A DNA stretch of 64,000 nucleotides from a virus (Duplodnaviria > Caudoviricetes). The stretch's first letter is position 1. The number at the start of each line of letters is the position of its first letter. The DNA lies in the IMG/VR virus record IMGVR_UViG_2897059268_000002, positions 1-64,000 of that record; one strand, 5' to 3'. This document shows, piece by piece, positions 15,062 to 58,755 of this stretch. Position numbers and translations under genes: made by a program. The notes below the pieces were generated by a model. The model ran no database searches, was not told the origin of the DNA, and saw nothing but the letters and a program-made list of their open reading frames with translations.

Positions 15062-15153
15062 CCGACCGCCCGGACCCCGCCCCCACCTGACCCGGCCGCG
15101 GGCCCCACACCGCAGCCGCCCGAACCTATCCGTACCGCTTGAAGGAGGTTCCC

Positions 15154-27039: not shown

Positions 27040-27519
27040 TCAGGCGCCCGCCGAGGACTGAACCCCCGCAAGGGCCTCCTCGATCACACCCAAGAACTCG
27101 CCCGCCGCATCCTGCCGCCACGCCGTCGCATGCAGAAACGCCTCCGCCAGCTCGGCGAACCCGTTCCGCTCACCCGCCGCCCGTTCCAACGCCCTCGCCA
27201 CAGCAAACACTCGCCGCGACACCCGCTGCCGCTCCACCACCAGCTCCGCGAACGCCAACACCTCGGTCAGGGCGTGATCCGGCGACGCCTCCAGCACCAG
27301 ACCACCACGCTTGTCCCGGAAGAACGACAACGTCGACTCCCCGCCCGAGGAACTGTTCAGGCGCAGACTGATGCTGTGCTCCGCGGCGAACGCCCACAGC
27401 CTCGCGCCGACGTCCGCAGGCGAGGCCTGGGCCGGCGGCGGAGGGGGAACCGGGGCCGACAAGACCGAGGCGGAGGCGGGGGAGGACAGCACCGACGACT
27501 TGTTTCTTGTTACGCTCAC
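27040..27519 (-). CDS. Hypothetical protein
   Basis: GAAGAAGG RBS upstream on minus strand. Confidence 0.6.
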   Translation of the reverse strand: MSVTRNKSSVLSSPASASVLSAPVPPPPPAQASPADVGARLWAFAAEHSISLRLNSSSGGESTLSFFRDKRGGLVLEASPDHALTEVLAFAELVVERQRVSRRVFAVARALERAAGERNGFAELAEAFLHATAWRQDAAGEFLGVIEEALAGVQSSAGA

Positions 27520-27772
27520 GGATAGACCTTCTTCCTGAGACGGAGCGGGTTGAAGACCAGCTGGTGATGCGGCTGGTCCCGGCCCAGGCGCCTGATACGC
27601 GCCTGGGCCTCTTGCATGACCGGGGTGATAGCCCGGGGTACTGCGAGCGCCAGGTGATGAGCCCGACGTGGGATGAGACTAGATCGCGCCAAGAGACACC
27701 TAGCGCACGATGATCCGAAAATAGCTACCTCTCTCCTTGCAACTTTGACGGTTCCGACATGTTGGAAACCGC

Positions 27773-28397
27773 AGGTCAGAGATCAGATTGACCCTTTCAG
27801 GAAGTCGCTGACCTCCTAGCTTTTCACTTTGCTGGTGCCCGGATGATTGCCTAACTGGATTTCGGCAAGTACCTTCATCAGCCCGCAAAGCTGACCGAAA
27901 CCCGACCACGGCCACCGGCCAGCATGCGCACGGTCCCCGACTCGCGATGCCACGTGGAAGGAACTTAGTTCAGGACAGCCAGTGCGAGACGCTGGACCGG
28001 CCATCTCTCTCTGTAGTTTCCTGCATGTCTTAATAGACAGAACGCGCAGGTCAGAGGACTCATTATCCCCCTCGGTGGACCGCTGACCTCCGACTTCCTT
28101 CACCTTCCGTTGCGTATTCGCGTTTCGGTGTGGTCCCTTTTAGTGCAGTTTTGGCGTAAATCTGGAACCTGGAAGATGTGTCCGGAAAATGGTCCTGCTC
28201 CCAGTCGCGCGCCACCCAAACGGAGCGCCTTGAAGTTCGGTACGAGGGAGAGGCTAGACCCGGCCACCCCAACTCCCTTCTGAACCAAAGGTGAAGTAGA
28301 CACCCCGACCTCCACCCAACCCGCTCATCCGAGCGCGAGTCGAAGGATGCTTCGCAGGTCAGGGCATGATCCCTCCGGACCGGCGCGCCCCTGACCT
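27773..28397. repeat. Three AGGTCAG-N28-CTGACCT inverted pairs in non-coding DNA
   Basis: 27773-27814, 28048-28089 and 28356-28397; each preceded by CGC. Confidence 0.8.
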
Positions 28398-28624
28398 CGC
28401 ACAACCCCTCAACACGAGGCTCATTTGTCGCCAGAAACGTTGCTTGCGCCTCCGCAAAACACCACAACCCAGGCGCGACCGGGTTGGCCGTAAACCCTCA
28501 CTACAACCCCCATCCGTTCCGAGTGAGCCGACCATCAGGCAGCCGCAACCCCGTGCGGAGGAGGTGTGTATGAGGCGGCCACACCCAGACCAACGTGTCG
28601 GGCAGGTGCCGGGTTATGGACGAG

Positions 28625-29113
28625 TCAGGCAGCGGGGCGGAGGTCGGAGTTGTGGACGATGTTGTGCAGCGGGCGCTCTGACTTGATCGCGAGAGCTTCC
28701 GCAGCGAACGCCTCCGGCCGACTCCCGAACCACTCAATCGAGAAGTTCGCCACGTCCTGCCACCATGACTTGTCCTTCGCGTGCTCCGGCCAGCGGCGCA
28801 GCGGGTCGTCACTGATGCCGACGTAGAGGAGTTGCTGCGTGGTATCGCGAAGGCGGTAGACGGCCGTGGGAGCCGAGGGGAGGATCTTTCGTCGCCTGAC
28901 CGTGAGCACGTAGTTCAACGGGGAGTCGTAGTCCTCTGCAGGCTCATAGAAGATGCCGGGCCCTGCTGACTTGCAATGCTCCCTACCGGTGCCCAGGTAC
29001 TGCCAGTAGCGGAGGTACTCGGGGTAGAGCTCACGGAGGAACGGGTGAACACCTCCGGGGCGGATGGTGTCGTACAGGTCGTCGAGCGTGATGGGCTCGG
29101 ATAGTTCGGTCAC
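28625..29113 (-). CDS. GIY-YIG domain protein
   Basis: AVYRL...LLYVGIS...RRWPEH...E..AI...PLHN; AAAGGAG RBS. Confidence 0.78.
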   Translation of the reverse strand: MTELSEPITLDDLYDTIRPGGVHPFLRELYPEYLRYWQYLGTGREHCKSAGPGIFYEPAEDYDSPLNYVLTVRRRKILPSAPTAVYRLRDTTQQLLYVGISDDPLRRWPEHAKDKSWWQDVANFSIEWFGSRPEAFAAEALAIKSERPLHNIVHNSDLRPAA

Positions 29114-29187
29114 ACGAAGCTCCTTTCGGGCGCGGCAAAGGGTGGCGCCGAATGCGGACGGTGCCGCTTCGACTACTAGGAAGCGTA

Positions 29188-29211
29188 GCTCTATAGAGCA
29201 ATTGAAAGCTA
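29188..29211. promoter_or_regulatory. Candidate GntR operator 1 (GCTCTATAGAGC)
   Basis: Perfect palindrome; about 23 nt similar to the copy at 30137. Confidence 0.65.
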
Positions 29212-29281
29212 GTGGTTCTCGCGAGATCGGCTAGCCCGGTCGTTGACCAGGGGTGATGCGTAGCGGGTAGCGTTGCTCTAG

Positions 29282-30070
29282 ATGAATCCACCTATAGGAG
29301 CGCCCGTGGAACGCAAGGCCGGCGAACGCAAGTACAGAGAGGTCGCCGATGACCTGCGTCGGCGCATCGCTGAGGGGGAGTTCAGCGAGGGGCGCCGCAA
29401 GCTTCCCTCGGAGCGCGACCTCGTTGAGCAGTACAAGGCGATCACCACTTCGGCGATGACCATCCGCCAGGCCTTGTCTGTTCTGCGGGATGAAGGTCTT
29501 GTCGAGTCGCGCGTGGGCTCGGGGTGGTACGTCGCGGAGTGGAAGCCCATCGTCAGGAACGCCCTGGACCGGCTCTTTCCGGATCGGTGGGGCGAGGCGG
29601 AGTCCATGTGGGACGTCGACATCGAAGGTCGCCGGCTCGACGTAGAAGACCTGCGCGTTCAGTTCGCTCCGGCTCCACCTGAAGCCGCCCGCGTCCTCGG
29701 CGTTGGATCCAAGGTCAAGGTGTGGCACCGGGATCGCCGATACGTGGTGGACGGCGTGCCGGTCATGAGGGCCGCCTCCTACATCCCTGACGAGTTCGCT
29801 CGCGGCACCCAGATCACCGAGAGCGACACGGGGAAGGGTGGCGTCTACGCGAGGCTCCGCGAAGCAGGGCACGGACCTGTCAGCTTCCGTGAGCAGATGC
29901 GGGGCAGGCCTGCTACCGCAGCCGAGGTCGACGATCTCCGCCTGGCTAAGGGTGCGACCGTGATCGAGCAGCACAGGATCGCGAGACGTGAAGACGGCCG
30001 TGTCGTGGAGTGCAGCCGAATGATTCTGGACGCTTCTCGATACCTTCTTGTCTACGACTTCGAGGCCTGA
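29282..30070 (+). CDS. GntR/HutC-family regulator with UTRA domain (KorSA-like)
   Basis: KYREVADDLRRRI...KLPSERDL...TIRQALSVLRDEGLVESRVGSGWYV; UTRA-like C-terminus; precedes tra operon. Confidence 0.9.
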   Translation: MNPPIGAPVERKAGERKYREVADDLRRRIAEGEFSEGRRKLPSERDLVEQYKAITTSAMTIRQALSVLRDEGLVESRVGSGWYVAEWKPIVRNALDRLFPDRWGEAESMWDVDIEGRRLDVEDLRVQFAPAPPEAARVLGVGSKVKVWHRDRRYVVDGVPVMRAASYIPDEFARGTQITESDTGKGGVYARLREAGHGPVSFREQMRGRPATAAEVDDLRLAKGATVIEQHRIARREDGRVVECSRMILDASRYLLVYDFEA

Positions 30071-30081
30071 CCTGCGCTTTT

Positions 30082-30112
30082 GGGCCCTCACCCTGCCGGG
30101 TGGGGGCCCTTT
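30082..30112 (+). terminator. Hairpin terminator after GntR gene
   Basis: GGGCCCTCACCC-TGCC-GGGTGGGGGCCC followed by TTT. Confidence 0.6.
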
Positions 30113-30136
30113 CTGCTGCCTCCGATGACTCATTCT

Positions 30137-30159
30137 CTCTATAGAGGCATTGATTGCTA
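30137..30159. promoter_or_regulatory. Candidate GntR operator 2 / transfer operon promoter
   Basis: CTCTATAGAGGCATTGATTGCTA versus CTCTATAGAGCAATTGAAAGCTA at 29189. Confidence 0.65.
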
Positions 30160-30215
30160 CATAGCAGTGTGGTTACCTATGGGTGTCACCCCAGCCGAGC
30201 AAATGGGAGCACTCA

Positions 30216-30449
30216 ATGACGCCCACCCCTGCCGCTCCCATGAGCGGCTACCTGACCACCGGCCAGGCGGCAGCCCGGATCGGATCCACCCCCCAGTACG
30301 TCCGCGAGCTCATCCATGCCGGGCACTTCGACGCCATCGACATCGGCACCGGCGAGCGCGCCCGGTTCCGGGTCACCGCTGAGTCCGTCGAGAAGTTCCT
30401 CACCGCCCGCGCCGTCCGCCCCGCCTCCCCGTCGGAGGTGGCGGCATGA
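30216..30449 (+). CDS. Excisionase-like HTH_17 protein
   Basis: YLTTGQAAARIGSTPQYVRELIHAG...RFRVTAESVEKFL. Confidence 0.8.
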   Translation: MTPTPAAPMSGYLTTGQAAARIGSTPQYVRELIHAGHFDAIDIGTGERARFRVTAESVEKFLTARAVRPASPSEVAA

Positions 30450-30613
30450 CCCCGCCGATCACCCCGCCGTCCGCCCCGCTCTCTCCGACGGACATCGCCG
30501 CCCACGAGGCTGGCTCGTATGTCCGCCGCACGGTGACCCCGACCCGCGAGTCGGTCACCCTCCCCGCCGAGTCTCCGGCCCGCCGCCGGCTGATTTCCCT
30601 GCGACGTCTCTGA
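30446..30613 (+). CDS. Small hypothetical protein
   Basis: GGAGG RBS; coupled on both sides. Confidence 0.5.
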   Translation: MTPPITPPSAPLSPTDIAAHEAGSYVRRTVTPTRESVTLPAESPARRRLISLRRL

Positions 30614-30747
30614 TGGCCGCGGCCGAGCAGCCCCGCGAGAACACGATCGTCGCGGAGCCCGCCACCCCCGACGCCTGCAAGCGCGACTACCAGGCGGCTG
30701 CTGATGTTCGGGCGCAGTTGGCCCGGCAGGAAGCCCGCCGCCGGTAG
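30613..30747 (+). CDS. Small hypothetical protein
   Basis: TGATG coupling. Confidence 0.5.
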   Translation: MAAAEQPRENTIVAEPATPDACKRDYQAAADVRAQLARQEARRR

Positions 30748-30834
30748 CACCCCCAGTCCGCCGCTCCTGCCCGGTGTCCGACCCCCGTCCCGGGCGGGAG
30801 CGGTACTCCACCCCCACCCTTTGGAAGGACAGTC

Positions 30835-31077
30835 ATGCCCGCGAATCTCGACATTCCTGATGTGCACGTGCTGTTGGCCGCCGAGGGCACCCTGCACCTC
30901 GACAGCCCGCAGAGCGAGGCCGACGTGGCCGCCGCGGTCACCCAGGCGGTTGTGGCCGCCACCCAGGCGTACCGGGTCGCTTACGCCCACGCCGGTGGTG
31001 ACGACGAGAACGAGACCGTTGACGGCCTCGACATGGCGTTCCATCTGCTCCGCGGCATCGCCAACGACCTGAAGTAA
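30835..31077 (+). CDS. Hypothetical protein
   Basis: GGAAGGA RBS. Confidence 0.6.
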   Translation: MPANLDIPDVHVLLAAEGTLHLDSPQSEADVAAAVTQAVVAATQAYRVAYAHAGGDDENETVDGLDMAFHLLRGIANDLK

Positions 31078-31120
31078 CCCCCACCCCAAACACTCCATCA
31101 CCCAACCGAAGGGCACCCCC

Positions 31121-31405
31121 ATGTCTCTGGAACTGATCCACTCTGCTTTCGACGCCCACGAGGCCGAGAAGGCCACTGAGCTGGCCGCCGAATTGGCCAG
31201 CCAGGTAGACGCCTACGAGGCGGAGGAGGCGACCCGCCTGGACCTCGCCGCCCGATACGAGATCGCCCTCGGGAACGGCGACCTGCTCGGCATCCGGCGG
31301 ATTGAGGCGCTCGCTGCCAGCTTCGAGCTCCTCCACCCTGGGGCACCTCGGGTCCTTGCGGACTGGCACGACGGCATCCGCTACGACGCCCCGGTCGCAG
31401 CCTGA
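31121..31405 (+). CDS. Hypothetical protein
   Basis: RBS and GC3 bias. Confidence 0.6.
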   Translation: MSLELIHSAFDAHEAEKATELAAELASQVDAYEAEEATRLDLAARYEIALGNGDLLGIRRIEALAASFELLHPGAPRVLADWHDGIRYDAPVAA

Positions 31406-31587
31406 TGGCCGCCTACAGCGCAGGCGACCAGGTCGACATGCACGACCTGCCCGAGCACTGCGGTGCACCGATGGAGCTCTACCGGGCTTACGCCACCGAC
31501 TACGAGGTGGTCTGCCGGGGCCGGGACTACGGATTCGGAGTCGACCACGACGGCGTCATCCGCACCTCGCCCACCAACACCCCCTGA
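31405..31587 (+). CDS. Small hypothetical protein, possible Zn ribbon
   Basis: HCGAPM...C; coupled. Confidence 0.55.
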   Translation: MAAYSAGDQVDMHDLPEHCGAPMELYRAYATDYEVVCRGRDYGFGVDHDGVIRTSPTNTP

Positions 31588-31679
31588 CCCCCCGGGCTGC
31601 CCTGTCGTCCCCAGCCCCACGGCTGGTGGCGGCGGAGTGGTCCGGGACCACCCGGACCCAACACCCAAGGAGAGCCCCC

Positions 31680-31892
31680 ATGGCCAGCGCCCGTCACTTC
31701 TTCAAGAGCCAGTCCGCCGAGCAGACCCGCGCCGACATCACCGCCGACATCAAGAACAGCCGCAAGGCGCAGCGTGAGGCTGCCGCGAACGGCCAGCACC
31801 GTGTCGCCGAGATGATGCGGCAGGGCGCCGACGAGGCCCTCGACGAGCTGAACCGGCTGAACGACGGCACGTGGAAGCCCAACCACGCATGA
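31680..31892 (+). CDS. Hypothetical protein
   Basis: AAGGAG RBS. Confidence 0.6.
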   Translation: MASARHFFKSQSAEQTRADITADIKNSRKAQREAAANGQHRVAEMMRQGADEALDELNRLNDGTWKPNHA

Positions 31893-32269
31893 GCATCGTC
31901 GGCATCATCTCGTTCGGCTTCCTGCACGGTGAGCCCCCGGCCGCGCATCTGACGCTCGACCTGCGGCAGCACTTCCGGGACCCGCACGTGTCTCCGGAGC
32001 TGCGGTACATGACCGCGGCCGACGAACCGGTGCAGCGGGCGGTCCTCGGAACCCCGGGCATCACCGGCCTGGTTGGGGCTGTGGCGGACGCGGTCTCCGC
32101 GTTCGCCGCGGGCCCCAGCGCCGGGCCCGTGACCGTTGCCGACGGGTGCGCGGGCGGCCGGCACCGGGCCCCCGTCTTCGCCCAGGCCCTCGCCGACCGG
32201 CTGACCGCCGACGGGCACACCGTCACCGTCCAGCACCGCGACCTGCACCGCCCCGTCGTCAACCGCTGA
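31889..32269 (+). CDS. Stand-alone RapZ C-terminal-like domain protein
   Basis: ISFGFLHG, DLR.HFRDPH, GCAGGRHR, V.HRD. Confidence 0.8.
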   Translation: MSIVGIISFGFLHGEPPAAHLTLDLRQHFRDPHVSPELRYMTAADEPVQRAVLGTPGITGLVGAVADAVSAFAAGPSAGPVTVADGCAGGRHRAPVFAQALADRLTADGHTVTVQHRDLHRPVVNR

Positions 32270-32280
32270 AGGAGCACCCC

Positions 32281-32526
32281 ATGACCGCCATGACCGCCAT
32301 GACCGAGACCCGTTCGCAGGAGATCGCCGCCGAGGCCCTGGCCAAGGCCGTGGAGTACGCCGACAGGGCTGGCCGGCTCGCCGCCCACGACACCGCGTGC
32401 AGCCTCCGGGACAACGGCCCGGCGATCACCGCCTACAGCGGCCTCGCCACCGTCTACGCCGAGATCGCCAAGGCCGCCGCCGTCGTCGCCGCCGAGACCG
32501 GCCGCGCCATCTCTAAGCCCGCCTGA
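32281..32526 (+). CDS. Hypothetical protein
   Basis: AAGGAG RBS. Confidence 0.6.
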   Translation: MTAMTAMTETRSQEIAAEALAKAVEYADRAGRLAAHDTACSLRDNGPAITAYSGLATVYAEIAKAAAVVAAETGRAISKPA

Positions 32527-32561
32527 ATCGCTCCGCCCCACCAGGAAGGAACTGAACCGCC

Positions 32562-33953
32562 GTGACGACCAGCCCGCCTCAGGTGAACGGCCACCCCCGC
32601 ACCCTGCCCGTCCTGGGGGAATGGCAGGCCATCACCAAAGCCATAGAGCAGCCCGTGGCCGCCGAAACGGCGAACGGGCCCACCGAACCCAAGCTCGACC
32701 TGATCGCCGAAGCTGAAGCCGAAGCGATCCGGGCCCGCGCCGCCGCCGAGTCCGAAGCGCGCCGCAAAGCCGCCGAAGCCGAAGCCGAAGCCGTTCGTAT
32801 CAAGGCCGAAGCCGAAGCCGAGAAGCAGCGCCTCGCGAATGAGCGAGCCGCCATGAAGCTGGAAGCCGACAAAGCAACCCACGCCAAGCGTCTCGCCGAG
32901 CTCGACGCACAGAAGGCTGCCGCCGAAGCCGCCGCGCTCAAGGCCCGCAAGGTATCCGAGGTCGAGGCTGGCCGGGCCGCCGCACGTGAAGCGGAGCAGA
33001 AGCGCACCGAGCACATTTGGAAGTGGGGTGCCCGCGCCATCTACGCAGTGGGACTGATCATCGCTTCCCCCATCCAGTTCCTCGCGTTCTGGGACAAGGA
33101 GCGCCCCTTCCTCGTCGCGGCTCCGGCTCTCCTAGAGGGGCTCGCCCTCGTTCTCGCCTTCGGTGCGGCGTGGGCTGTTGCTCACCGCCGAGACGTTCTG
33201 CCCTACCGCGTCGGCATCATGGTCGGTGCCTTGATCGCAGCAGGCATCAATTTGTGGCACGGACTCGACGACCCCGAGATCGGCCTCAACGCCGGAATCA
33301 TCGGAGCCATCGCCTCCGTCGGCGGCCCGATTGTCCTCATGGCCTACGAGCACGGCATTGCGCAGAAGGCCGACGGGGTCCCGTCATGGCGCGAGCAGCG
33401 AGCCGCCGACAAGGCCCGCGAAGCAGAAGAAGCAGTCAAGTCGCAGGCGAAAGCCGAGAAGGAAGCAGCCGAAGGGAAGGCCGCCGCCGACAAGGCTGAG
33501 CAGCAGGCCCGGCTCGAAGCCGAACAGCAGCGCAAGGACGCCGACAGGCGGGACCAGCACAAGGACGTCTGGGACGTCGCCGAAGCCTTCCGTTCCGCCC
33601 GTGGCGCGCAGGTGGTGACCGAGCAGATCTGGGCTGATGCCTGGTATCGGGTGACGGGCACCAAGCTCATCGGGATCCGGCCCGAGATCGAGGCTCAGAG
33701 CAGGCTCGCTGCGGCCCGCATGAAGGACGCCTCGGAGTGCCCGGTTGGCGACGCTGCGTCGCAGGTCGAATCCCAAATGCCCCCCAGGCAGAAGAAGGAC
33801 CAGGACGCCCCCGACGGGCGCCGCCACAACGGCGGCATCCCGCCCATCCGGCAGCCCGGCGACACGACCCCCTACCACCGTGCTGCCGCCGTGTCGGCAG
33901 CCGACACCGCACGCCGTTCCGTGACCGCCCGAATCACAGCTGAGGAGAACTGA
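32562..33953 (+). CDS. Coiled-coil / 4-TM membrane protein (Spd-like spread protein candidate)
   Basis: EAEA coiled coil, four hydrophobic helices, second coiled coil; directly upstream of traA/traB. Confidence 0.65.
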   Translation: MTTSPPQVNGHPRTLPVLGEWQAITKAIEQPVAAETANGPTEPKLDLIAEAEAEAIRARAAAESEARRKAAEAEAEAVRIKAEAEAEKQRLANERAAMKLEADKATHAKRLAELDAQKAAAEAAALKARKVSEVEAGRAAAREAEQKRTEHIWKWGARAIYAVGLIIASPIQFLAFWDKERPFLVAAPALLEGLALVLAFGAAWAVAHRRDVLPYRVGIMVGALIAAGINLWHGLDDPEIGLNAGIIGAIASVGGPIVLMAYEHGIAQKADGVPSWREQRAADKAREAEEAVKSQAKAEKEAAEGKAAADKAEQQARLEAEQQRKDADRRDQHKDVWDVAEAFRSARGAQVVTEQIWADAWYRVTGTKLIGIRPEIEAQSRLAAARMKDASECPVGDAASQVESQMPPRQKKDQDAPDGRRHNGGIPPIRQPGDTTPYHRAAAVSAADTARRSVTARITAEEN

Positions 33954-33954
33954 T

Positions 33955-34533
33955 ATGAGCACTGCCGCCGACCAGGGATGGCCCTGGGCAGGGCCCCAGC
34001 CTTCCGTCCCGCCCCGCCCGCGTACTGAACCCACCAATGGCACCCGGCCGACCAGCGTGGACAACTCGAAGACGCGCACCGGCGGCGGGTTCAACCCGTC
34101 GATCGGGCTCGCCGTGAACAAGACCGTCGTGAACGGCAAGGGTGCCCCCGCGGCCCCCGGTGCCGGCGCCGCAGGCGGTACCGGGGGGAAGGTTCCCGGC
34201 TCCGACTTCATGTCCAACGAGGACATCCGCGCGTTCTGCGAGTACCTCCGCAAGGAGTCCCGGAACCGGGCCACCGAGCGGGCCATGGACGCCGACCACC
34301 TCGAAGCGGTCCTCCGCACCATCCCCGACGGGGGAGGCAGCCTCCACGGAGCCCGCGCCCGGGCCCGCCGGGTGTCCCGGTGGCTGCGGAAGGTCGCCGC
34401 CGCGGAGAAGAACATCCAGAAGTACAGCGCCATGATCTACGGCACGTTCGAGCGGGAGTACGAGTCCGACCTGCGGAAGGTCGGCAAGGGCCGCACCCAG
34501 CCGCCCCGCCCCACCAAGTTCGGCTGGCGCTAA
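33955..34533 (+). CDS. traA: Streptomyces plasmid transfer protein TraA-like
   Basis: DFMSNEDIRAFCE...ARARARRVSRWL; immediately upstream of traB. Confidence 0.65.
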   Translation: MSTAADQGWPWAGPQPSVPPRPRTEPTNGTRPTSVDNSKTRTGGGFNPSIGLAVNKTVVNGKGAPAAPGAGAAGGTGGKVPGSDFMSNEDIRAFCEYLRKESRNRATERAMDADHLEAVLRTIPDGGGSLHGARARARRVSRWLRKVAAAEKNIQKYSAMIYGTFEREYESDLRKVGKGRTQPPRPTKFGWR

Positions 34534-34568
34534 CCACCCCCGACCACCACCTGATCAGGAGTACACCC

Positions 34569-36566
34569 GTGGCTGACAGCCAGAAGGCCGACCTGTGGAA
34601 GGCCATCAAGCACCCCCGCATGAGGCCCTGGCTGACCGTTGCCGCCGAGGTCCCCGCCACCTTCGCCTCCCACCACTACTGGGGGAACTCCGTACCCGCC
34701 GCGATCGGCCTCACCGTCGCCGCAGGGGTACTCACCGCTGCCACCTGGTGGGCAGGCGAAGGAACCCGGCCCGGGCGGCGTATCCACGCCACCCTGTCCA
34801 CCGGCCTCGGCACCTCCTACCTCGTCGTCGGTACCGCCGTCGGCCCGTTCGACCCGGCGCTCGCCTCCACCCTCGTCATCGGCGGTGCCGTCGCCGCCGG
34901 GTCGTGGAACATCCGCCAGGCCCTCCGCGTCAACGTCGACCCGCAGAAGGCTGGCGGCAACGCCGAGACCGGGGTCCTCGTCAAGGCCATCGGCGAAGCC
35001 AAGGTCGCCCTCCGCGGCAAGCCGAAGATCGAACCCAACAAGGTCACCGCACCCCTCCAGCTGTCCGCCGGGCAGGTCACCTCCGACGACCTCGGGAACC
35101 GCATCAAGCACATCGCCGGTGAACTCGGCGTCTCCCCGACCAGCATCCGCGTCATCCCCGACCCCGACGACGCCGCCCGCGCCACCCTCGTTGTCGTACC
35201 CAAGGACGAACTGAAGCAGCCCACTCCCTGGCCCGGCCCATCCGCTCCGGGCGGCAGCATCACCGACCCCATCGTCATCGGCATCTACGAAGACGGCGAG
35301 GAAACCCGACTGTGGTTCCCCGCCGGCCCGGGGCGGAACGCCACCCACTTCCTCACTGCGGGCATGAACGGCTCCGGGAAGTCCGCTGGCCAGTCCGTTG
35401 CAATCGCCGAGGCCCTGACCCGCCGCGATGTCATCGTCTGGGCCGTTGACCCGTCCAAGGGCATGCAGACGTTCGCCCCGTTCCTGCCCCACCTCGACTG
35501 GGTCGAGATGACCGAGGCCGGCGGCAACGAGATGATCGACGCCCTCACTCAGGTCATCACCGCCCGCGCCAACACCCTCGGGCAGCACGGCTACAAGAAC
35601 TGGACCCCGCAGGCCCACGACCAGCTCGGCATGCCCTACCTGATCGTGTGGATCGAGGAGGCGGCCAAGTTCTTCCGCAACGGCACAGAGATGGAAGGCC
35701 TCGTCATGGAGGCCCGGTCCGCCGGGATCAGCGTCATCATCAGCCTCCAGCGGCCCTCCGCCACCAGCATGCCCACCGACGTCCGCGAGCAGCTCGGCGG
35801 TGCCATCTGCTTCGGCGTCAAGGGCTCCACCACCGCCGACATGGCGCTCCCCGACGACGTTCGCGACGCCGGCGCCCGCCCCGAAGCGTGGGAGAACCGC
35901 AAGCCCGGCTACGCCTACCTCGTCGCCCCCGGCGTCGACGAAGACCGGTACGCCACCCCGCTGCGTACCTACCTCATCGACGACGACCAGATCACCGGGG
36001 CGCTCTCGATCCTGCCCCGCACCCCCATCGACCCTGTTACCGCTGCCGCAGCCGGTGACGCCTACACCAACCGCACCCGATACGACGCTGACACCCCCCT
36101 GGCCAGCAACGACACTGACAGGCAGGAGAACGTCCTCATGAGCAAGGACGACAACGAGCAGGCCGAGAAGGCGCTGCTGGAGAAGCAGGTCGACCGGGAG
36201 ATCGACGCCATGGTCGGCGACGACCCCGACGACGACGGGTTCGTTCCCGACGTTGACGCCGAGCAGGAGATCGCCCCGGTGAGCGAGGTGTGGTCGTTCG
36301 GGCAGGCCAAGGCCCCCGTCGAGGAGAAGACGCCGGAGGCCGGCATGGAGGCCCTGATGGCGATGCTGGCCGAGTTCCGGGCGGAGGAGCGGGAGTTCAT
36401 CGGCCCGAAGGACTTCGGCCCGTTCGGGAAGGGGCAGCGCATCGGGAGGGCCCGTTCCTGGGTGTCAGGAACCCTCGGAGACCTGTCAGACGCCGGGATT
36501 CACCTGTCAGAAACGGACAAGCCGGGGGTGTACAGGCTGCTGTACCCGGAGCTGGCGGAGGTCTGA
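34569..36566 (+). CDS. traB: Conjugative DNA translocase TraB (FtsK/SpoIIIE family)
   Basis: N-terminal TM helices; Walker A AGMNGSGKS; DPSKG; Walker B LIVWIEEA; ARSAGISVIISLQRP; C-terminal wHTH. Confidence 0.88.
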   Translation: MADSQKADLWKAIKHPRMRPWLTVAAEVPATFASHHYWGNSVPAAIGLTVAAGVLTAATWWAGEGTRPGRRIHATLSTGLGTSYLVVGTAVGPFDPALASTLVIGGAVAAGSWNIRQALRVNVDPQKAGGNAETGVLVKAIGEAKVALRGKPKIEPNKVTAPLQLSAGQVTSDDLGNRIKHIAGELGVSPTSIRVIPDPDDAARATLVVVPKDELKQPTPWPGPSAPGGSITDPIVIGIYEDGEETRLWFPAGPGRNATHFLTAGMNGSGKSAGQSVAIAEALTRRDVIVWAVDPSKGMQTFAPFLPHLDWVEMTEAGGNEMIDALTQVITARANTLGQHGYKNWTPQAHDQLGMPYLIVWIEEAAKFFRNGTEMEGLVMEARSAGISVIISLQRPSATSMPTDVREQLGGAICFGVKGSTTADMALPDDVRDAGARPEAWENRKPGYAYLVAPGVDEDRYATPLRTYLIDDDQITGALSILPRTPIDPVTAAAAGDAYTNRTRYDADTPLASNDTDRQENVLMSKDDNEQAEKALLEKQVDREIDAMVGDDPDDDGFVPDVDAEQEIAPVSEVWSFGQAKAPVEEKTPEAGMEALMAMLAEFRAEEREFIGPKDFGPFGKGQRIGRARSWVSGTLGDLSDAGIHLSETDKPGVYRLLYPELAEV

Positions 36567-36743
36567 CACCTCGGGGTGTCAGCGCTGACACCCCCTCTGA
36601 CCTGCGGTGACACCGTTCTGACACGGTTCTGACACTCCGAAGGTGTCAGAACCGGTGTCAGAAGCCCTCCGGAGGGCTGATTCCTATAGGTCATGCGCGT
36701 GCGCGCGCGTGGCCGCCCCCGCGATGACACCCCAACCTGACAC
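36462..36743. repeat. clt-like locus: cluster of (T)CTGACAC / GTGTCAG(A) repeats
   Basis: About 12 copies; TTCTGACAC at 36616 and 36627; GTGTCAGAA at 36643 and 36655; palindrome at 36573-36594. Confidence 0.78.
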
Positions 36744-36756
36744 AGGAGACAAAACC

Positions 36757-37188
36757 GTGAAAAGCCCCGAAACGGACGGAGGTTGGGCCAAGGTACTCGC
36801 CGCCGCACTCCGCACCTGGACCACCGTCGACAACGACCCCGAACCCCCCGTCGCACGCCTCGAAATCCGCTACCCGCCCCACTGGGCGTTCACCTCCACC
36901 AACAACATCACCGCCCGCCAGCAAGCCCGGCTCCTCGCGTTCCTCCGCGACGACCTCGCCGAAAACCGGCCCGGACACTCCACCCCCGAACGCGCCGCCG
37001 CAGTCATCCACGGCCTCATCACCGAACACGCCGCCGCCGGCCACACCCGCATCACCACCGCAGACCTCGCCGAAGCCGCACCCCGCATCGGCCGGTCCCG
37101 AACCTGGATCGCCGCCCACATCACCGACCTCATCGACGACGGCGTCCTCCACGAAACCAGGCGCCCCGACACCTTCCGCATCAACTAG
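36757..37188 (+). CDS. Protein with TraB-like C-terminal winged helix
   Basis: IGRSRTWIAAHITDLIDDGVLHETRRPDTFRI aligns with the TraB C-terminus; AGGAG RBS. Confidence 0.7.
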   Translation: MKSPETDGGWAKVLAAALRTWTTVDNDPEPPVARLEIRYPPHWAFTSTNNITARQQARLLAFLRDDLAENRPGHSTPERAAAVIHGLITEHAAAGHTRITTADLAEAAPRIGRSRTWIAAHITDLIDDGVLHETRRPDTFRIN

Positions 37189-37196
37189 GAGGCCCC

Positions 37197-37391
37197 GTGT
37201 TCACCGGAACCCCCGCCGAACTCCGGCGCCGCGAACAGCAGGCAGCCGAGTACGCCGCACAGGTCGCCGACCTCCTCAACGCCATCCACCAGCTGGGCAT
37301 CGGCGTCGTCATATCCACCTCGAACCGGGTCGCTGGACCCGGCTTCGCCATCCGCCCCGTAAACGGCCGCTGGGCCGTCGACCATCACTAG
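37197..37391 (+). CDS. Hypothetical protein
   Basis: AGGAGG RBS. Confidence 0.6.
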   Translation: MFTGTPAELRRREQQAAEYAAQVADLLNAIHQLGIGVVISTSNRVAGPGFAIRPVNGRWAVDHH

Positions 37392-37400
37392 GAGCCCACC

Positions 37401-37880
37401 GTGCAGCTGCCCGAGCAGCCCGTCGCCGGGCAGCCCGACACCACCATCCGCCGCAACGCCGACCAGCTCATGGCCGCCATCAACAAGATCCAGGTCGAGA
37501 CGCCAACCTCGTACCGCGACAACACCCCGCTCCCCGCGGTCGGCCTCACCCCGCCCGTCCAGCAGCCCGGCCCGCCCCCGATGTCGCAGTGGGCGATCGA
37601 CGCGAGCGGGGTCCTGAAGGCCGTGTCCGTGGCGTCCCTGCCGATCGGCGGCGCCCTGTGGATCGTCGGCCAGATCGAACCGTGGGCCCTCGGCATCATC
37701 CTCGGCTCGCCAGCCGTCGCAGCCCTCGCCGTCGCCCGGCTGGTCGCGAAGGTCAAGGACGCCAACCAGGCCGCCCCGCAGCCGGTTGTGCAGCACTTCC
37801 ACGGCACCGTCCACCACGACGAGCGCACCGTCACCAGCACCACCCGCGGCGTCATCGCAAAGACCCAGAACCGGCACTGA
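37401..37880 (+). CDS. 2-TM membrane protein (Spd-like candidate)
   Basis: Pro-rich region then two hydrophobic helices; downstream of traB. Confidence 0.6.
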   Translation: MQLPEQPVAGQPDTTIRRNADQLMAAINKIQVETPTSYRDNTPLPAVGLTPPVQQPGPPPMSQWAIDASGVLKAVSVASLPIGGALWIVGQIEPWALGIILGSPAVAALAVARLVAKVKDANQAAPQPVVQHFHGTVHHDERTVTSTTRGVIAKTQNRH

Positions 37881-37958
37881 CCCAATCTGATCACTTCCCC
37901 CGCAACGGGGCCCACCCGCCGATAACCTCCGATCTCACACACAATCCCTGGGGGGACC

Positions 37959-38477
37959 ATGAGTACCGAAACGCCGCCACCAGTCGAACCACCCGACGCC
38001 CCCGCAGCGCCGCCCATGCCCACCGAACCCCCGGCCGTGGCACCGAAGAAGCAGCCCTCCCCGCTCCTTGCCGGGCTCCTCGGCCTGGCCATCGGGGCCG
38101 GCGCCGTCGGCGGAGTCTGGGCGTACACCGCACGCGACACCGCGCCGCCCAAGCCCGACACCTTCACGCTCAAGGGCACCTTCACTCTCATGGAAAACGC
38201 CACTGAAGACGAGGAGACCGGCTGCTACGGCACTGGCGGATACGACGACATCAAGGAAGGTGCGTCCGTCACCGTTTACGACGGCGCCGGGGGCATTGCC
38301 GCCACTGGCTCTCTCGGCCACTCCGAGTACATCGCAGGGCTCTGCATGTACGACATAGCCGTCAAGGACGTGCCGGCGGACCAGAAGTTCTACCAAGTCG
38401 AGGTGTCCCACCGGGGGAAGGTCCACCTCACCGTGAAGCAGGCCAAGGCTGGCGAGCTCACCGCGTCCCTCGGCTGA
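37959..38477 (+). CDS. Single-TM membrane protein with beta-rich domain
   Basis: Pro-rich N-terminus, LLAGLLGLAIGAGAVGGVW, two Cys. Confidence 0.7.
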   Translation: MSTETPPPVEPPDAPAAPPMPTEPPAVAPKKQPSPLLAGLLGLAIGAGAVGGVWAYTARDTAPPKPDTFTLKGTFTLMENATEDEETGCYGTGGYDDIKEGASVTVYDGAGGIAATGSLGHSEYIAGLCMYDIAVKDVPADQKFYQVEVSHRGKVHLTVKQAKAGELTASLG

Positions 38478-38490
38478 CTAGATCAACGCA

Positions 38491-38530
38491 CAACGAGGCC
38501 CCCGGACCAGACCGGCCCGGGGCCTCGTTG
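38491..38530. terminator. Strong hairpin closing the transfer operon
   Basis: CAACGAGGCCCC...GGGGCCTCGTTG. Confidence 0.7.
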
Positions 38531-39071
38531 CGTGGCAGAGCCGCCGCACGGTTGCCACATCAACCGCTTGGCATATGACGTAGGCATAGTTACAGCGTGT
38601 GGGGCCGTGACTAGACCCACAACGCCACATCCTCCAAACGGGTGACGCCGTCACAGATTCAAGAACCGGAATTCGCTATGGACGTTGACTTAGCGTGTAC
38701 AAGTGAAACGCCCCAGCACGCCAGCGAACAACTGGCGAGCCGGGGCGCAGCAACGGGAGGAGGTCAGGAACGGATGAACCGAAGCACCTTGTCCCGCAAC
38801 AACCCGACACCAGCCGGGGCGTACACCGCGAACTTCAAGCACGCAACCAGCGTCACAGCCGGCCCGATTGCCAACCAGGGGTCCACCCCCTCCACGGCGA
38901 CCAACTCGGTGAACGACACGCCGCCCACCAACACCAACACCGAGTCGGTGGCCGGATGAGAACTGCGACCAGGCGCCGCCAGGTCGCGGCCAGAGGCATT
39001 AACTGATCGTTTCAGAATGAGTTGAGCCGTGGGTCTTGCGCTCGACGATCTTGGTCGGCAGGGTGTCCGGC

Positions 39072-39880
39072 GTGCGTGCTGATCTTGTTCCGGATGACCT
39101 GTGGGAGCGGGTGGCCCCGCTGCTGCCGCCCGCCCCCGAACGGCGCCATCGCCACCCGGGGCGGCTGCGTGTTCCCGATCGAGTGGCGCTCGCCGGCGTC
39201 TTGTATGTGCTGCGGACCGGTGTCGCGTGGCGTGACGTCCCCGCGGAGGCGGTGGGCTGTTCCGGAGTGACGGCCTGGCGCCGACTGCGGGACTGGACCG
39301 AGGCTGGTGTCTGGCCGCGCCTGCACGCGGCCCTGTTGACCGAGCTTCGCCGCGCCGGCCTGCTGGACCTGGACGACTGCTCCGTGGACGGATCGCACGT
39401 CCGGGCGCTCAAAGGGGGGACCACGTCGGACCCTCGCCCGTCGATCGGGCCCGCTCCGGCTCGAAGCACCACCTGATCGTCGACCGTCACGGAACCCCGC
39501 TCGCCGTCACGCTCACCGGCGGTAACCGGCACGACGTCACCCAGCTCCTTCCTCTGCTCGACGCCGTTCCGTCGATCCGGGGTCTGCGGGGGCGTCCCCG
39601 TCGCAAGCCCCGGCGTCTGTATGCCGACCGGGGCTACGACTTCGACAAGTACCGCCGCCTGCTGTGGAAGCGGGGCATCAAGCCGATGATCGCCCGGCGC
39701 GGCGTCGCCCACGGCTCCGGACTGGGCAAGGTGCGCTGGGTGGTCGAGCGCGCCTTCGCCTGGCTGCACCAGTTCAAACGACTCCGCACCCGCTACGAAC
39801 GACGCGCCGATCTCCACCAGGGCCTGCTCGAACTGGCCTGCAGCCTCATATGCCTGCGCCGCCTCCGAACTTCATTCTGA
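39072..39880 (+). CDS. IS5-family transposase in two frames joined by a -1 frameshift near 39411-39420
   Basis: DDLWERVAPLLP...YVLRTGVAWRDVP; AAAGGGGGGA slippery site; GSKHHLIVD, ADRGYD, RWVVERAFAWL. Confidence 0.9.
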
Positions 39881-39961
39881 AAGATCAGTAATCAGTAAGG
39901 GGCGATGCTCCGAAGTTGGTGCAGGGTAGCGAAGTCGGGTTCCTGCCCTTGCGAGCTGAAC

Positions 39962-40288
39962 TCAGGTGAGGTCGAAGGTGACGCTCACGGAGCCGTCCCA
40001 GTCCGGTGCCTCCACGAGCGTGAGGGCCCCATCCTCGGCCTCGACGACTCGCACCGTGATCTCGCCGCAGTCCTCACCTGGAAACGCAATGGAAAAGTGG
40101 GGATCCATCTCCATGAGGAAGTCCCAGCCCTCGCGTTGGGTCGCGTCAAGGGCGTTGGCATGCTGACCGGTAGCCCGCCACTTGCCGTCCGCGTCGACAG
40201 TGGCAGTGATGTTGATGTCGTACGTCTCTAGGCAAATCGACTGATTAGCCCACCATTCGAGGCGGCCCTGACCCACGAATCGATCCAT
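39962..40288 (-). CDS. Hypothetical protein, IS passenger
   Basis: MDRFVGQGRLEWWAN... ORF between the two right IRs. Confidence 0.6.
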   Translation of the reverse strand: MDRFVGQGRLEWWANQSICLETYDINITATVDADGKWRATGQHANALDATQREGWDFLMEMDPHFSIAFPGEDCGEITVRVVEAEDGALTLVEAPDWDGSVSVTFDLT

Positions 40289-40692
40289 GAGCACACTATG
40301 CAGCCGTGCATGCCGACCGGGCGAGCCTGCACGACTGCCGGCCGTCGTGGGACAGGTCGCGACACAGAATTGCATGGGCAGACCGGACGGGCCCTCGCCT
40401 CATCCGGCGGTACCCCATACGCCTCCGCCGCCTCGCGACCTCATTCTGAAACCATCAGTAAGCCCCTGGCCCGCAGGGGATTGATCCATAGCTAATTCCT
40501 CTGTGAGGCGTCACCCCTCGCCTGCTCTGCTTTGCCGGCTACGAGGGTGAGGGGTGACGCGGTCCGTAGGCGCAATAGCGCTTCAGATGACACAACGACA
40601 CCCGTAAGCGTTTGAGGACCCATATCCAGGTCGACCACCCCATGGTGTGAACGCCCGAAACCTCGCGCTACCCGCGGGCGTTTACCTACGGC

Positions 40693-40875
40693 TCACCGAA
40701 CGGCTAGGCCCCGGACCTCTTGGTCCGGGGCCTTGCGTGTGGCACGGGCGATCCATGCCCCGCCGAGCCGGTCCGTGGGCGGCAGGGTCACCTCGACGTG
40801 CAGCAGCCGGCGCAGGTCATCCAACGCCTGCTGGCACTCCGCCTGGGTGCGACCGTGGACCGTGTACCTCGCCAT
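40693..40875 (-). CDS. Small hypothetical protein
   Basis: MARYTVHGRTQAECQQALDDL. Confidence 0.5.
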   Translation of the reverse strand: MARYTVHGRTQAECQQALDDLRRLLHVEVTLPPTDRLGGAWIARATRKAPDQEVRGLAVR

Positions 40876-40973
40876 GGGGGCATTCTGCCGGGGGAGCGGG
40901 GGCGGTGAGGTCGGAACCAGATATGACGCCCCATCCACAGATACCCTGACCCCGTCGACACCAAGGGGGGCAC

Positions 40974-41426
40974 GTGGACTACAGGGTGCGCTGCTACGTC
41001 CCAGGGAAGCCGCCCCGCGAGTGGCACTACCCGACACGCCGCCAAGCCGACAAGCAGTGCGACGGCATCCTCCGAACCGCCCGGCAAGAAGGCGCCCCCG
41101 TCACCGTCATTCTCCGCCCCCCAAGCGGCAAATCGGAGCGCACCGTCCTCGAAGCCGGCCAACCCAAGCTTCAACTCTCACCCTCGATCGTCGCTAGACG
41201 CGAAGCAGGGGCAGTCGCGCGGCGGCAGCAGCAACGGGAGGCCGAAGCCGCTGCCGCTGCGGTGCCGCCACCCGAGCCGACCATCCCCGGGTGGCAGATC
41301 GCGTTGTTCTTCCTTATGGCGTTGATCGGGGCGCTGCCGCGACGAAGCCACCGCGGCACCGCGCGCATCTTCACCGGGAACACGTGGGGGAGTGGCGGAG
41401 GCGGCGACTTCGGCGGCGACCTGTAG
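40974..41426 (+). CDS. Hypothetical membrane-anchored protein
   Basis: AAGGGG RBS, C-terminal TM, Gly-rich tail. Confidence 0.55.
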   Translation: MDYRVRCYVPGKPPREWHYPTRRQADKQCDGILRTARQEGAPVTVILRPPSGKSERTVLEAGQPKLQLSPSIVARREAGAVARRQQQREAEAAAAAVPPPEPTIPGWQIALFFLMALIGALPRRSHRGTARIFTGNTWGSGGGGDFGGDL

Positions 41427-41465
41427 CCGAGGTCGCCGCACCGGCATGGACGCGGTGGCCGCCGG

Positions 41466-41759
41466 CTAGTCGTGCGGGTAGTCGTTGTGTTCGACGTAGG
41501 GGGCGGCGAGGAGCCGCAGCTGGTACTCGGCGGTCTGGCCGGCCTCCCCGCCCGCACCCAGGTACGGGATCACGGTGTCCTCCAGCAGCGTGAGATGCAC
41601 CTCCGCCGCGGCAACGGAGAACCTGGCGTGCCGGGCGGCGTCCTCGGGGGCGACACCGAACCGCTCGGGATCCTGGGTGACCGTGCTGCTCGCGAACCGG
41701 GCCTTCTCCAGCTCCTCGGCGAACCGGGCCGTGAGGAAGGCCGCCAAGGCGTCGGTCAT
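41466..41759 (-). CDS. Hypothetical protein (DUF6221-like)
   Basis: DALAAFLTARFAEE...LRLLAAPYVEHNDY. Confidence 0.6.
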   Translation of the reverse strand: MTDALAAFLTARFAEELEKARFASSTVTQDPERFGVAPEDAARHARFSVAAAEVHLTLLEDTVIPYLGAGGEAGQTAEYQLRLLAAPYVEHNDYPHD

Positions 41760-58001: not shown

Positions 58002-58080
58002 GGCCGCTGCTCACTGATTGACGTGGTCGCCCTGGTGGCGGCCTTTCTCATTTCGACAGCCCCTGGAGGGCCGATTCGTC

Positions 58081-58734: not shown

Positions 58735-58755
58735 CTGCGGAGAAGGTAGGACCCC

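Follow-up and report, generated by a model that had tools for sequence, protein, structure and literature searches.

Phages and conjugative elements are usually treated as separate classes of mobile DNA, with host ranges limited by receptors in the one case and by cell contact in the other. In Streptomyces the two have already been found combined, as pZL12/phiZL12 is a published plasmid-phage with a conjugal transfer locus (PMC4487206, PMC3583192, PMC5431353), and its replication, its transfer and a cycle between plasmid and lytic phage are described as characterised. For the plasmid pSVH1, Thoma et al. (PMC4447253) describe hexamers of the translocase TraB, which bind the 8-bp repeats of the clt (the transfer locus acting in cis) region by their C-termini and pump unprocessed double-stranded plasmid DNA, a GntR-type repressor, TraR, whose gene forms a Kil-Kor pair with traB, and SpdB2 and further Spd proteins needed for spreading within the recipient mycelium. 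Actinomycete elements that are both integrative and conjugative (AICEs) are defined by clustered Int, Rep and Tra functions (PMC3218068). Here we describe a locus at 29.2-38.5 kb of the first 64,000 bases (the window) of the IMG/VR record IMGVR_UViG_2897059268_000002, a single contig of 79,727 bp, and propose, with a probability of about 0.6, that it is a Streptomyces TraB-type module for transfer and spread of double-stranded DNA (dsDNA), resident in an integrating phage and giving that phage a capsid-free route.

Plain lists of open reading frames (ORFs) are useless at the G+C content of this DNA (63-74%), and genes were therefore called by a crude third-position GC (GC3) score, which yielded 106 ORFs over the whole contig; all coordinates given here come from this caller, and start codons are approximate. 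Transmembrane (TM) segments were taken from a Kyte-Doolittle scan (window 19, threshold 1.6). The present record (G000) was compared with five related IMG/VR records (G001-G005) and with a species-representative genome carrying a relative (G007). The locus contains the following features.

29189-29198, no strand assigned: first copy of the palindrome CTCTATAGAG, located upstream of the GntR gene in the divergent region
29306-30070, plus strand: GntR/HutC-type regulator with a GntR helix-turn-helix (HTH) and a UTRA domain
30082-30109, plus strand: terminator-like hairpin after the GntR gene (12-pair stem with 10 GC pairs, T-rich tail)
30137-30146, no strand assigned: palindrome CTCTATAGAG, copy 2, upstream of the HTH_17 gene and the tra operon
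30240-30449, plus strand: small HTH_17 protein (excisionase-family fold), first gene of the tra operon
30613-32526, plus strand: run of small ORFs called by GC3, including a stand-alone RapZ C-terminal domain (RapZ-C) protein
31889-32269, plus strand: the RapZ-C protein
32562-33953, plus strand: SpdB2-like membrane protein of 463 amino acids (aa), with four TM segments between coiled-coil-like, Ala/Glu-rich N- and C-terminal parts
34057-34533, plus strand: TraA
34569-36566, plus strand: TraB, a predicted FtsK-like dsDNA translocase
36462-36743, both orientations: clt-like locus, 11 TGACAC/GTGTCA repeats spanning the traB stop and the intergenic region after it
36757-37188, plus strand: stand-alone paralogue of the C-terminal DNA-recognition domain (winged HTH, wHTH) of TraB
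37197-37391, plus strand: small ORF of 64 aa (GC3 call)
37401-37880, plus strand: membrane protein with two TM segments, Spd-like by position
38016-38477, plus strand: protein with one N-terminal hydrophobic segment, membrane-anchored or secreted
38491-38530, plus strand: GC-rich hairpin closing the operon, directly 3' of the last stop

Profile searches revealed that TraA and TraB each exceed the curated equivalog cut-off of NCBIfam, TraA with 100 bits against 80 for NF041213 (plasmid_TraA) and TraB with 835.2 bits against 800 for NF041214. The latter alignment extends over residues 9-664 of TraB and over model positions 2-638 of 639, and a Walker A motif (GMNGSGKS) lies at residues 265-272. 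traA is located directly 5' of traB, with a gap of 35 bp. Compared with PHROGs, TraB matched phrog_24831 at 312.7 bits and FtsK/SpoIIIE-like families at 1.8e-18; no solved structure was matched in the PDB by sequence. At the aa level TraB is 88-93% identical in the related viral records and 74% in the plasmid pCQ3, and the corresponding values for TraA are 61-89% (G001-G005) and 68%. Ratios of nonsynonymous to synonymous substitution (dN/dS), calculated pairwise by NG86 and thus approximate on genes of such high GC, were 0.18-0.22 for traB (against G001-G004), like the 0.20 of the capsid gene, and 0.17-0.23 for the wHTH gene (against G001-G004). On these ratios, the tra cassette is under purifying selection.

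The second line of evidence is the repeat cluster at the 3' end of traB. Within 36440-36760, a stretch of 321 bp, lie 11 of the 26 TGACAC/GTGTCA copies of the contig, where about 0.06 would be expected (Poisson P ~1e-21). As this highly non-random cluster occupies the usual position of clt, whose 8-bp repeats are read by TraB according to the source cited above for pSVH1 (PMC4447253), it is likely a clt-like locus made up of candidate TraB docking repeats. In G001, G004 and G005 the cluster persists with 10 copies each, and a variant repeat motif stands in its place in G002, G003 and pCQ3. The protein encoded directly 3' of the repeats matches positions 562-632 of the TraB model (39.7 bits) and aligns by BLASTP with residues 586-657 of the TraB of the same element (31% over 72 aa, E=1e-8). 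Its aa identity amounts to 87-94% in G001-G005 and to 62% in pCQ3 and the W75 plasmid, the only two records of the plasmid collection in which it was found. This conservation and the low dN/dS argue that the paralogue has a function; it could compete with or assist TraB at clt, and we would guess that the third gene of the pZL12 transfer locus may be its counterpart. The C-terminus of TraB has the form SWVSG...HLSETD in the four elements with 10-11 TGACAC copies and the form SWVSM...HLQETE in two elements with variant repeats. Such co-variation of protein and repeat motif is a weak hint only, which we do not count as evidence because the elements are too few and the lineages too closely related.

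Upstream of traA, the 463-aa protein carries hydrophobic segments at residues 159-177, 183-201, 217-235 and 244-262. The layout of SpdB2, i.e. four TM helices, an N-terminal coiled-coil and a place in a tra/spd operon, is thereby matched by four segments with Ala/Glu heptad-like flanks, and SpdB2 itself is described by Thoma et al. (PMC4447253) as a pore-forming spread protein of this architecture with homologues on some actinophages. A total of 782 homologues was retrieved at E<=1e-5; among the 120 that were listed, all source names stating an organism are Streptomyces, and a few were named 'SpdB2 protein' or 'DUF2637' by their sources. The protein matched no Pfam family at E<=0.01 and hence does not qualify for DUF2637, and on account of this and of the few homologues so named we call it SpdB2-like rather than a member. 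Against plasmids, tblastn at 1e-10 gave no match for it, to which the low-complexity filter may have contributed. The RapZ-C protein (PapZ_C 88.3 bits, phrog_18111 167.5 bits) is 83-87% identical at the aa level in G001, G003 and G004.

Downstream of the wHTH gene, the 64-aa ORF belongs to no family (no Pfam hit) and is 77-78% identical (aa) in G001 and G002. The two-TM protein, with segments at residues 71-89 and 97-115, matches phrog_19266 at 206.6 bits and is 54-81% identical (aa) in G001-G005 and 45% in the plasmid of strain NBC_01005. The hydrophobic segment of the protein at 38016-38477 covers residues 17-35; no Pfam, NCBIfam or PHROG match was obtained for it, and the only homologue among the relatives is in G003 (64%). 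The closing hairpin is strong, as the fold of 38470-38560 reaches -46.1 kcal/mol (z = -3.84) and none of 200 shuffles was as stable. It is followed by about 3 kb of poor coding potential (38500-41450) between the tra operon and the next conserved genes. Within this stretch we observed three copies of CATTCTGAAA, at 39010 (minus) and at 39873 and 40442 (plus), inside longer repeats of 20-39 nt; among the relatives compared, CATTCTGAAA is unique to the present element.

An earlier interpretation made from the letters of the window (the sequence-only reading) had described much of this module. Its GntR regulator, operon of small genes, four-TM coiled-coil protein and TraA are all present at or near where it had placed them, and its full-length TraB, the repeat locus at the 3' end of traB and the two additional membrane proteins were likewise borne out. 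The terminator it had assigned to the end of the operon holds in part, since a strong hairpin does follow the last stop, but it has no T run and 38491-38530 was not listed by a consensus terminator scan. The same applies to the claimed co-orientation of the module with its neighbours: the module lies on the plus strand, but minus-strand ORFs occupy 27040-29113 and 38764-41759. Of the profile checks it had named, TraA succeeded, but DUF2637 gave no match and FtsK_SpoIIIE stayed under its cut-off, as discussed below.

The regulator at the 5' end of the module (Pfam GntR 62.4 bits, UTRA 80.2 bits; phrog_10724 159.5 bits over its full length) is a candidate Kor/TraR-like repressor. Two exact copies of the perfect 10-bp palindrome CTCTATAGAG occur in the 64 kb, with similar 3' flanks (shuffle mean 0.24; 3 of 100 shuffles reach two copies), and these may serve as operators. 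The regulator is 65% identical in a metagenomic viral locus (L011). The HTH_17 protein that heads the tra operon scored 27.4 bits in Pfam at a cut-off of 27 and was also recovered by a six-frame search. As a second HTH_17 gene follows the Cro-like gene near the left edge of the record, the element has two, which may point to two separately controlled excision routes.

Two further observations concern the early region around the regulator. ORFs with a GIY-YIG domain are encoded beside the GntR gene (28625-29113, minus strand) and at 15139-15753, and may be homing-type nucleases that add to the mosaicism. Just upstream of the former, in a stretch of lower GC without a convincing ORF, three units of AGGTCAG-N28-CTGACCT lie in 27773-28397 with starts 275 and 308 bp apart; none of 100 shuffles reached three matches, and the units are absent from G001-G005, pCQ3 and the NBC_01005 plasmid. 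They could represent an origin, a set of operators or small hairpin RNAs.

The relatives show how consistently the cassette is kept. A pattern scan of IMG/VR yielded six loci with TraB at 64-93% identity, and five of these records, 81-87 kb in size, were compared whole (G001-G005; CheckV 94-100%, three classed as provirus and two as 'linear'). All five keep traA, traB, the wHTH gene and the two-TM gene (54-94% aa) at the same position, with differing early genes. Only G001 shares the present large terminase subunit (TerL) and capsid; G002-G005 carry a second, unrelated virion set (portal, TerL, major head protein, a tape measure of 2018 aa, the distal tail protein Dit, a minor tail protein and fibres), and pCQ3 has a third. 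From these comparisons we conclude that one tra cassette persists on at least three virion backbones. At the nucleotide level, homology to the relatives hardly extends outside 33.9-37.9 kb, apart from patches. In G005, the traB match (L035, ~32361-34354) is split over two frames overlapping at query residues 220-227, owing either to a mutation that shifts the frame or to an error in sequencing.

In a scan of species-representative genomes five loci were found, three of them on contigs or chromosomes of 1.28-8.7 Mb. At the chromosomal locus L041 a TerL (78% aa) and a portal (73%) of the present type follow within ~7 kb downstream of traB. Among plasmids, tblastn matched TraB in 80 records, 15 of them over >=80% of the query. 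Full-length matches to pCQ3 (NC_013449.1, 73.9%) and the W75 plasmid (NC_019307.1, 73.1%) stand out, the next one reaching <=39.5%. Besides ParA/ParB and an integrase, pCQ3 encodes a major capsid protein and tail proteins, with the capsid downstream of tra, and it matches only seven of the 106 ORFs, TraA, TraB and the wHTH paralogue included. The virion module is shared in full, TerL to lysin, by the plasmid NZ_CP108705.1 (50-89% aa, capsid 82%), which has ParA/ParB and in which tblastn at 1e-5 found no TraB homologue. In its slot before the packaging genes (L002, 1517-3670) are two large unannotated ORFs of 649 and 717 aa, which have no Pfam match and adjoin homologues of the two-TM and RapZ-C proteins. 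In the 717-aa ORF we observed a Walker A motif and, against the ATPase region of TraB, a weak collinear alignment (24.5% over 310 aa, pairwise E=0.038); it may be a very divergent translocase.

A further question for the proposed reading is whether the cassette belongs to the phage and integrates with it. IMG/VR classes the record as a provirus, and CheckV estimates its completeness at 100%. It opens on the stop codon of a minus-strand gene and closes on a stop codon, exactly in both cases, and neither terminal overlap nor inverted terminal repeats were found at the ends of the 79.7-kb record. We read it as a prophage cut from a larger contig at gene borders; consistent with this, the 463-aa membrane protein of the window is also recorded from a contig of up to 737,560 bp.

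The clearest case of integration comes from G007. A 120 kb region of this genome was taken, and 4.4 kb from each side was searched in 41 related genomes. In three of them (G014, G017 and G020) the two flanks were located ~1.7-1.8 kb apart, and alignment revealed that they abut with an overlap of 8-14 bp. The insertion in G007, with the direct repeat AACTTCATCTGGAA of 14 bp at its borders, measures 85.8 kb. It holds the integrase homologue (63% aa), which starts ~100 bp inside one end, the tra cassette (46.5-52.8 kb of the fetched region) and type-2 virion genes (59-82 kb). Given the empty sites in the three genomes, integrase, tra and virion genes form one insertion in G007 bounded by attachment (att) sites. 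No tRNA was found at the G007 junctions or at the empty sites. The junctions lie at 16918-16931 and 102778-102791 of the fetched region (L044, L049), inside a protein-coding region rather than a tRNA gene, and at the phage end the interrupted sequence regains a similar reading.

Similar boundaries were found among the viral records. In G004, the 14-bp core TGAACATCCCTTTC occurs at 520 and at 83,411, ~82.9 kb apart, and the G005 contig starts at this core; the integrase homologues of both (94-96% aa; G004 96%) lie ~80 bp inside it. The core is absent from the present record, which fits trimming at the integrase stop codon; on the right, too, the record may fall short of the boundary. The 81.3-kb contig of G003 is circularly permuted, its start encoding residues 1090-2018 of the tape measure and its end the N-terminal 797, so that ~290 residues are missing between the contig ends and the junction from cargo to integrase is internal; hence a circular or concatemeric form existed in that culture. 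Taken together, the comparisons support the tra module as a conserved resident of an integrating temperate siphovirus-like phage (~80-86 kb) and not as a separate element lodged in it.

Two other identities were considered and rejected. A nested AICE with ends of its own was dismissed since the longest exact direct repeat flanking the module with one copy per side, 13 bp, is reached by 66 of 100 triplet shuffles, and no integrase or Rep families were found among the ORFs scanned in 25-42 kb, a scan run with no model dedicated to rolling-circle Rep proteins. The families from a repeat search are low-identity, GC-rich coding matches. An autonomous plasmid, the first thought in view of a single 79.7-kb contig and a pCQ3-like traB, was rejected for the present record; the provirus class, the lack of ParA/ParB and the SpdB2-like protein on the larger contig speak against it.

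The phage genes around the module are listed below.

1-1284, minus strand: tyrosine integrase at the left edge of the record
1704-2120, minus strand: one half of a divergent HTH pair, lysogeny switch (weak Pfam HTH_31)
2301-2546, plus strand: other half of the pair (Pfam HTH_31/HTH_3, 47 bits)
2548-2856, plus strand: HTH_17 ORF resembling an excisionase (Xis-like; HTH_17 28.3 bits at 2611-2730)
16700-18067, plus strand: DnaB-type replicative helicase (Pfam DnaB_C 200.9 bits, DnaB 99.2 bits)
54084-55829, plus strand: TerL (Pfam)
55826-57268, plus strand: SPP1-type portal (Pfam)
58018-58734, plus strand: scaffold-like protein (PHROGs scaffold)
58756-59709, plus strand: HK97-type capsid (Pfam)
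59709-60740, plus strand: GT4 glycosyltransferase (Pfam)
62614-63267, plus strand: tail tube (Pfam)
78640-79248 of the contig: small serine resolvase, ~40 kb from the tra module

The integrase matched PHROG phrog_1 'integrase' with 99.3 bits over residues 17-413 and Pfam Phage_int_SAM_3 at the cut-off with 22.6 bits; Phage_integrase (PF00589) gave no match in the whole record. The lysogeny-switch region (1704-2856) matches phrog_37057 'transcriptional regulator'. Besides the helicase, the early region encodes a P22-type antirepressor N-terminal domain, an RNase T-like exonuclease, a PDDEXK protein, an AAA_24 ATPase, a C5 methyltransferase and a PAPS-reductase-like protein. The six typed proteins from TerL to tail tube are 84-96% identical (aa) to G001 and 67-89% to the NBC_01005 plasmid; for two untyped ORFs in 54084-63267 these values are 55-56% and 65%. 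Beyond the window follow a 1599-aa ORF of tape-measure size, a DUF5047 protein, an Amidase_2 lysin, a DUF4352 protein and an endonuclease VII. From its size, its position and its 56-82% identity to ORFs in relatives, the 1599-aa ORF is probably the tape measure. With terminase, portal, capsid, tail tube, tape measure, lysin, integrase and a repressor-type switch, the element has the gene set of a temperate tailed phage. The GT4 gene starts at the stop codon of the major capsid gene and occupies the same place in G001 and in the NBC_01005 plasmid (91% and 67% aa, respectively); its retention beside the capsid suggests a virion-associated or late function. No tRNA was detected in the window, and no Rfam family up to gathering score within it. 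Six-frame searches of the record found neither ParB_N and AAA_31 (ParA-type) nor Prim-Pol, and the control genomes were positive.

As to the phage side of the sequence-only reading, its largely intact packaging, head and tail genes were found in the form of TerL, portal, capsid and tail tube at 54-63 kb, with more beyond the window. The constant position of tra that it wanted checked in relatives was observed in all five related viral records, though early and virion modules differ, and att-like repeats bounding only the module did not emerge beyond chance. Its statement that no Prim-Pol or second integrase lies near the module stands as far as none was found, but the small serine resolvase is present farther off on the contig. 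Its interpretation as a whole is supported in part, namely in that the tra module belongs to the phage genome.

Every pSVH1 component has a counterpart in this element, and we therefore propose the excised phage circle as the substrate of TraB. Relief of the GntR repressor would allow expression of the tra operon, and the integrase together with an Xis-like protein would excise the prophage as a circle. Hexameric TraB would then bind the TGACAC repeats via its C-terminal domain and pump the double-stranded circle into a neighbouring hypha, from where the SpdB2-like and other membrane proteins would carry it on across cross-walls, until the integrase re-inserts the element in the recipient. The outcome would be a capsid-free, receptor-independent route beside the ordinary lytic one. 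More tentatively, and to our minds still doubtful, lysogeny might have two separately wired exits: CI/Cro and the Xis-like protein at 2548-2856 would lead to replication, packaging and lysis, whereas the GntR regulator, the Xis-like protein at 30240-30449 and the tra/Spd proteins would lead to excision and transfer of a naked circle without killing of the donor, with the free wHTH copy deciding between TraB docking and terminase.

Several observations weigh against the transfer module as proposed. TraB scored 20.2 bits with Pfam FtsK_SpoIIIE, under the cut-off of 24, and its N-terminus contains no TM segment called at the threshold used, with hydrophobic stretches visible at residues 20-115. 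Neither the GntR gene (at most 29% aa) nor the CTCTATAGAG palindromes are conserved in G001-G005, and the proposed GntR control would therefore be specific to the present element; since HTH_17 is a general DNA-binding fold, a role as Xis is a guess. traB is frameshifted in one of the five relatives (G005), and at the chromosomal locus L043 its match in one piece covers only 380 of 665 residues, which indicates that the cassette can decay. Because the record was trimmed at gene borders, its own att sites fall outside it, and the dN/dS values carry the approximation of NG86 already mentioned. No public sequencing run contained half of the sampled words (best share 0.29), and no RNA run was listed. 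Finally, among 50,697 records of deposited phages, TraB was full length (>=80% of the query) in none of the 120 that matched, 118 of which are Bacillus phages with FtsK-like genes, and megablast of the module against phages gave no match; on this coverage, no cultured, sequenced phage of that collection is known to carry TraB.

The same lack of a deposited phage with full-length TraB could be taken to mean that the element is a large integrative and conjugative element (ICE) or integrated plasmid, with phage genes that are defective or otherwise used, so that TraB would be its sole working route and 'phage' a misnomer. Outside provirus predictions its close relatives are indeed plasmids, i.e. 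pCQ3, the W75 plasmid and, for the virion genes, NBC_01005 unnamed2. We nevertheless regard this as quite improbable, given a virion gene set that looks complete and is full length against relatives, dN/dS values against G001 of 0.07 for TerL and 0.20 for capsid, a CheckV estimate of 100% and the presence of lysin and CI/Cro-like genes; pZL12, too, made infectious particles according to its title and to citing papers. Still less credible is that the tra region is what is left of an AICE or small plasmid that entered one prophage by insertion or recombination, and is now a passive or decaying passenger. The high mosaicism of the genomes, with nucleotide homology limited to ~33.9-37.9 kb plus patches, the broken traB of G005 and the differing GntR genes of the relatives would agree with such an origin, but traB is intact in the present record and in four of five viral relatives at a dN/dS of ~0.2, the cassette holds the same position across three different virion backbones, and clt repeats persist at 10-11 copies in four elements. 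Neither an AICE-type Rep nor an adjacent integrase was found, and the flanking repeats do not rise above chance.

A different use of an intact module is harder to set aside, though we hold it unlikely as the whole explanation: TraB and the Spd proteins might only spread phage DNA within one mycelium across septal cross-walls, after infection or in lysogeny, and so fill all those hyphal compartments that a single injection cannot reach, without mating between mycelia. The SpdB2-like gene and two more membrane proteins that accompany TraB fit this use. Set against it, the cassette is also present on the plasmid pCQ3 (62-74% aa), and the pZL12 transfer locus was reported as conjugal. The sequence does not tell the two uses apart, and they are not mutually exclusive. 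The proposed transfer of the excised phage by TraB appears to us plausible and well supported by the comparative data.

If the proposed transfer is true, a phage leaving as naked dsDNA by a pump of one protein would be free of receptor-based resistance and would not depend on lysis to spread, and 80 kb of cargo could pass from one Streptomyces strain to another, with consequences for gene flow among antibiotic producers. Should the two exits also prove true, temperate phages that integrate in mycelial bacteria would be both phage and ICE.

Compared with known systems, the module most resembles in its parts those of pSVH1 (PMC4447253) and of pSAM2-type AICEs (PMC2440964, PMC3218068), which combine a GntR-type regulator, an SpdB2-type four-TM protein, TraB, clt beside traB and small membrane proteins. 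Unlike the present element, these small plasmids and AICEs measure 9-30 kb and have their own Rep and no virion genes, and small-plasmid TraB is only 36-39.5% identical to the present TraB. AICEs are usually found in tRNA genes, in contrast to the window without a tRNA and to the relative in G007 within a protein-coding region. The clustering of Int, Rep and Tra that defines an AICE is not seen here: 33 kb separate the integrase from traB, the record yielded no Prim-Pol, and no Rep was found among the ORFs scanned in 25-42 kb, the RepSA/RepAM models not having been run. Beyond the actinomycetes, Phi1207.3 of Streptococcus pyogenes, called a 'conjugative prophage' (PMC4260502), resembles the present element as a prophage reported to transfer conjugally. 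Its host belongs to a different phylum from that of the present element. We know of no TraB-type system in Phi1207.3.

The same virion module occurs in NBC_01005 unnamed2 (NZ_CP108705.1, 88 kb, circular) and in NZ_CP109578.1, and the NBC_01005 plasmid has homologues of the two-TM and RapZ-C proteins just upstream of its packaging genes; unlike the present element, it has ParA/ParB and no TraB homologue, with the 717-aa Walker A ORF in the place of TraB. The closest plasmid TraBs are those of pCQ3 (Streptomyces sp. W9, 85.5 kb, circular) and the W75 plasmid (84.8 kb). With pCQ3 the element shares TraA (68% aa), the wHTH protein (62% aa), a related repeat cluster after traB and a downstream capsid gene. 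In contrast, the ParA, ParB, HTH Rep-like and DUF721 proteins of pCQ3 have no match in G000-G005, and its virion genes are unrelated.

pZL12, compared by description only and from a literature available in part, likewise unites tailed-phage virion genes and a Streptomyces tra locus on one replicon. [quoted passage not shown] It differs as an autonomous circular plasmid of 90 kb with ParA/ParB, whereas the present element is integrated and has an integrase, and ParB_N/AAA_31 were not found. The transfer locus of pZL12 is reportedly called traA-traC. Virion and tra genes on one element, as in pZL12- and pCQ3-type phage-plasmids, are thus found here as well, and plasmid maintenance genes are not.

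The rarity implied by the sequence-only reading was therefore overstated: pZL12/phiZL12 had been published, and pCQ3 has the same traA-traB-wHTH cassette beside capsid genes. That phage and tra genes can work in combination was reportedly shown for pZL12 in 2010. A literature search, mostly outside subscription journals and without supplementary element tables, gave no description of a chromosomally integrated, TraB-carrying Streptomyces prophage. What the present comparison adds is the same cassette in chromosomally integrating phages without partition genes, apparently kept under selection while head and tail modules swap around it, and accompanied by its own regulator, an Xis-like gene and a free recognition domain. 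Thus, the combination of phage and tra is already known from pZL12, while its integration as an att-bounded prophage without partition or plasmid Rep genes, and the occurrence of one cassette across at least three virion backbones, set the present case apart.

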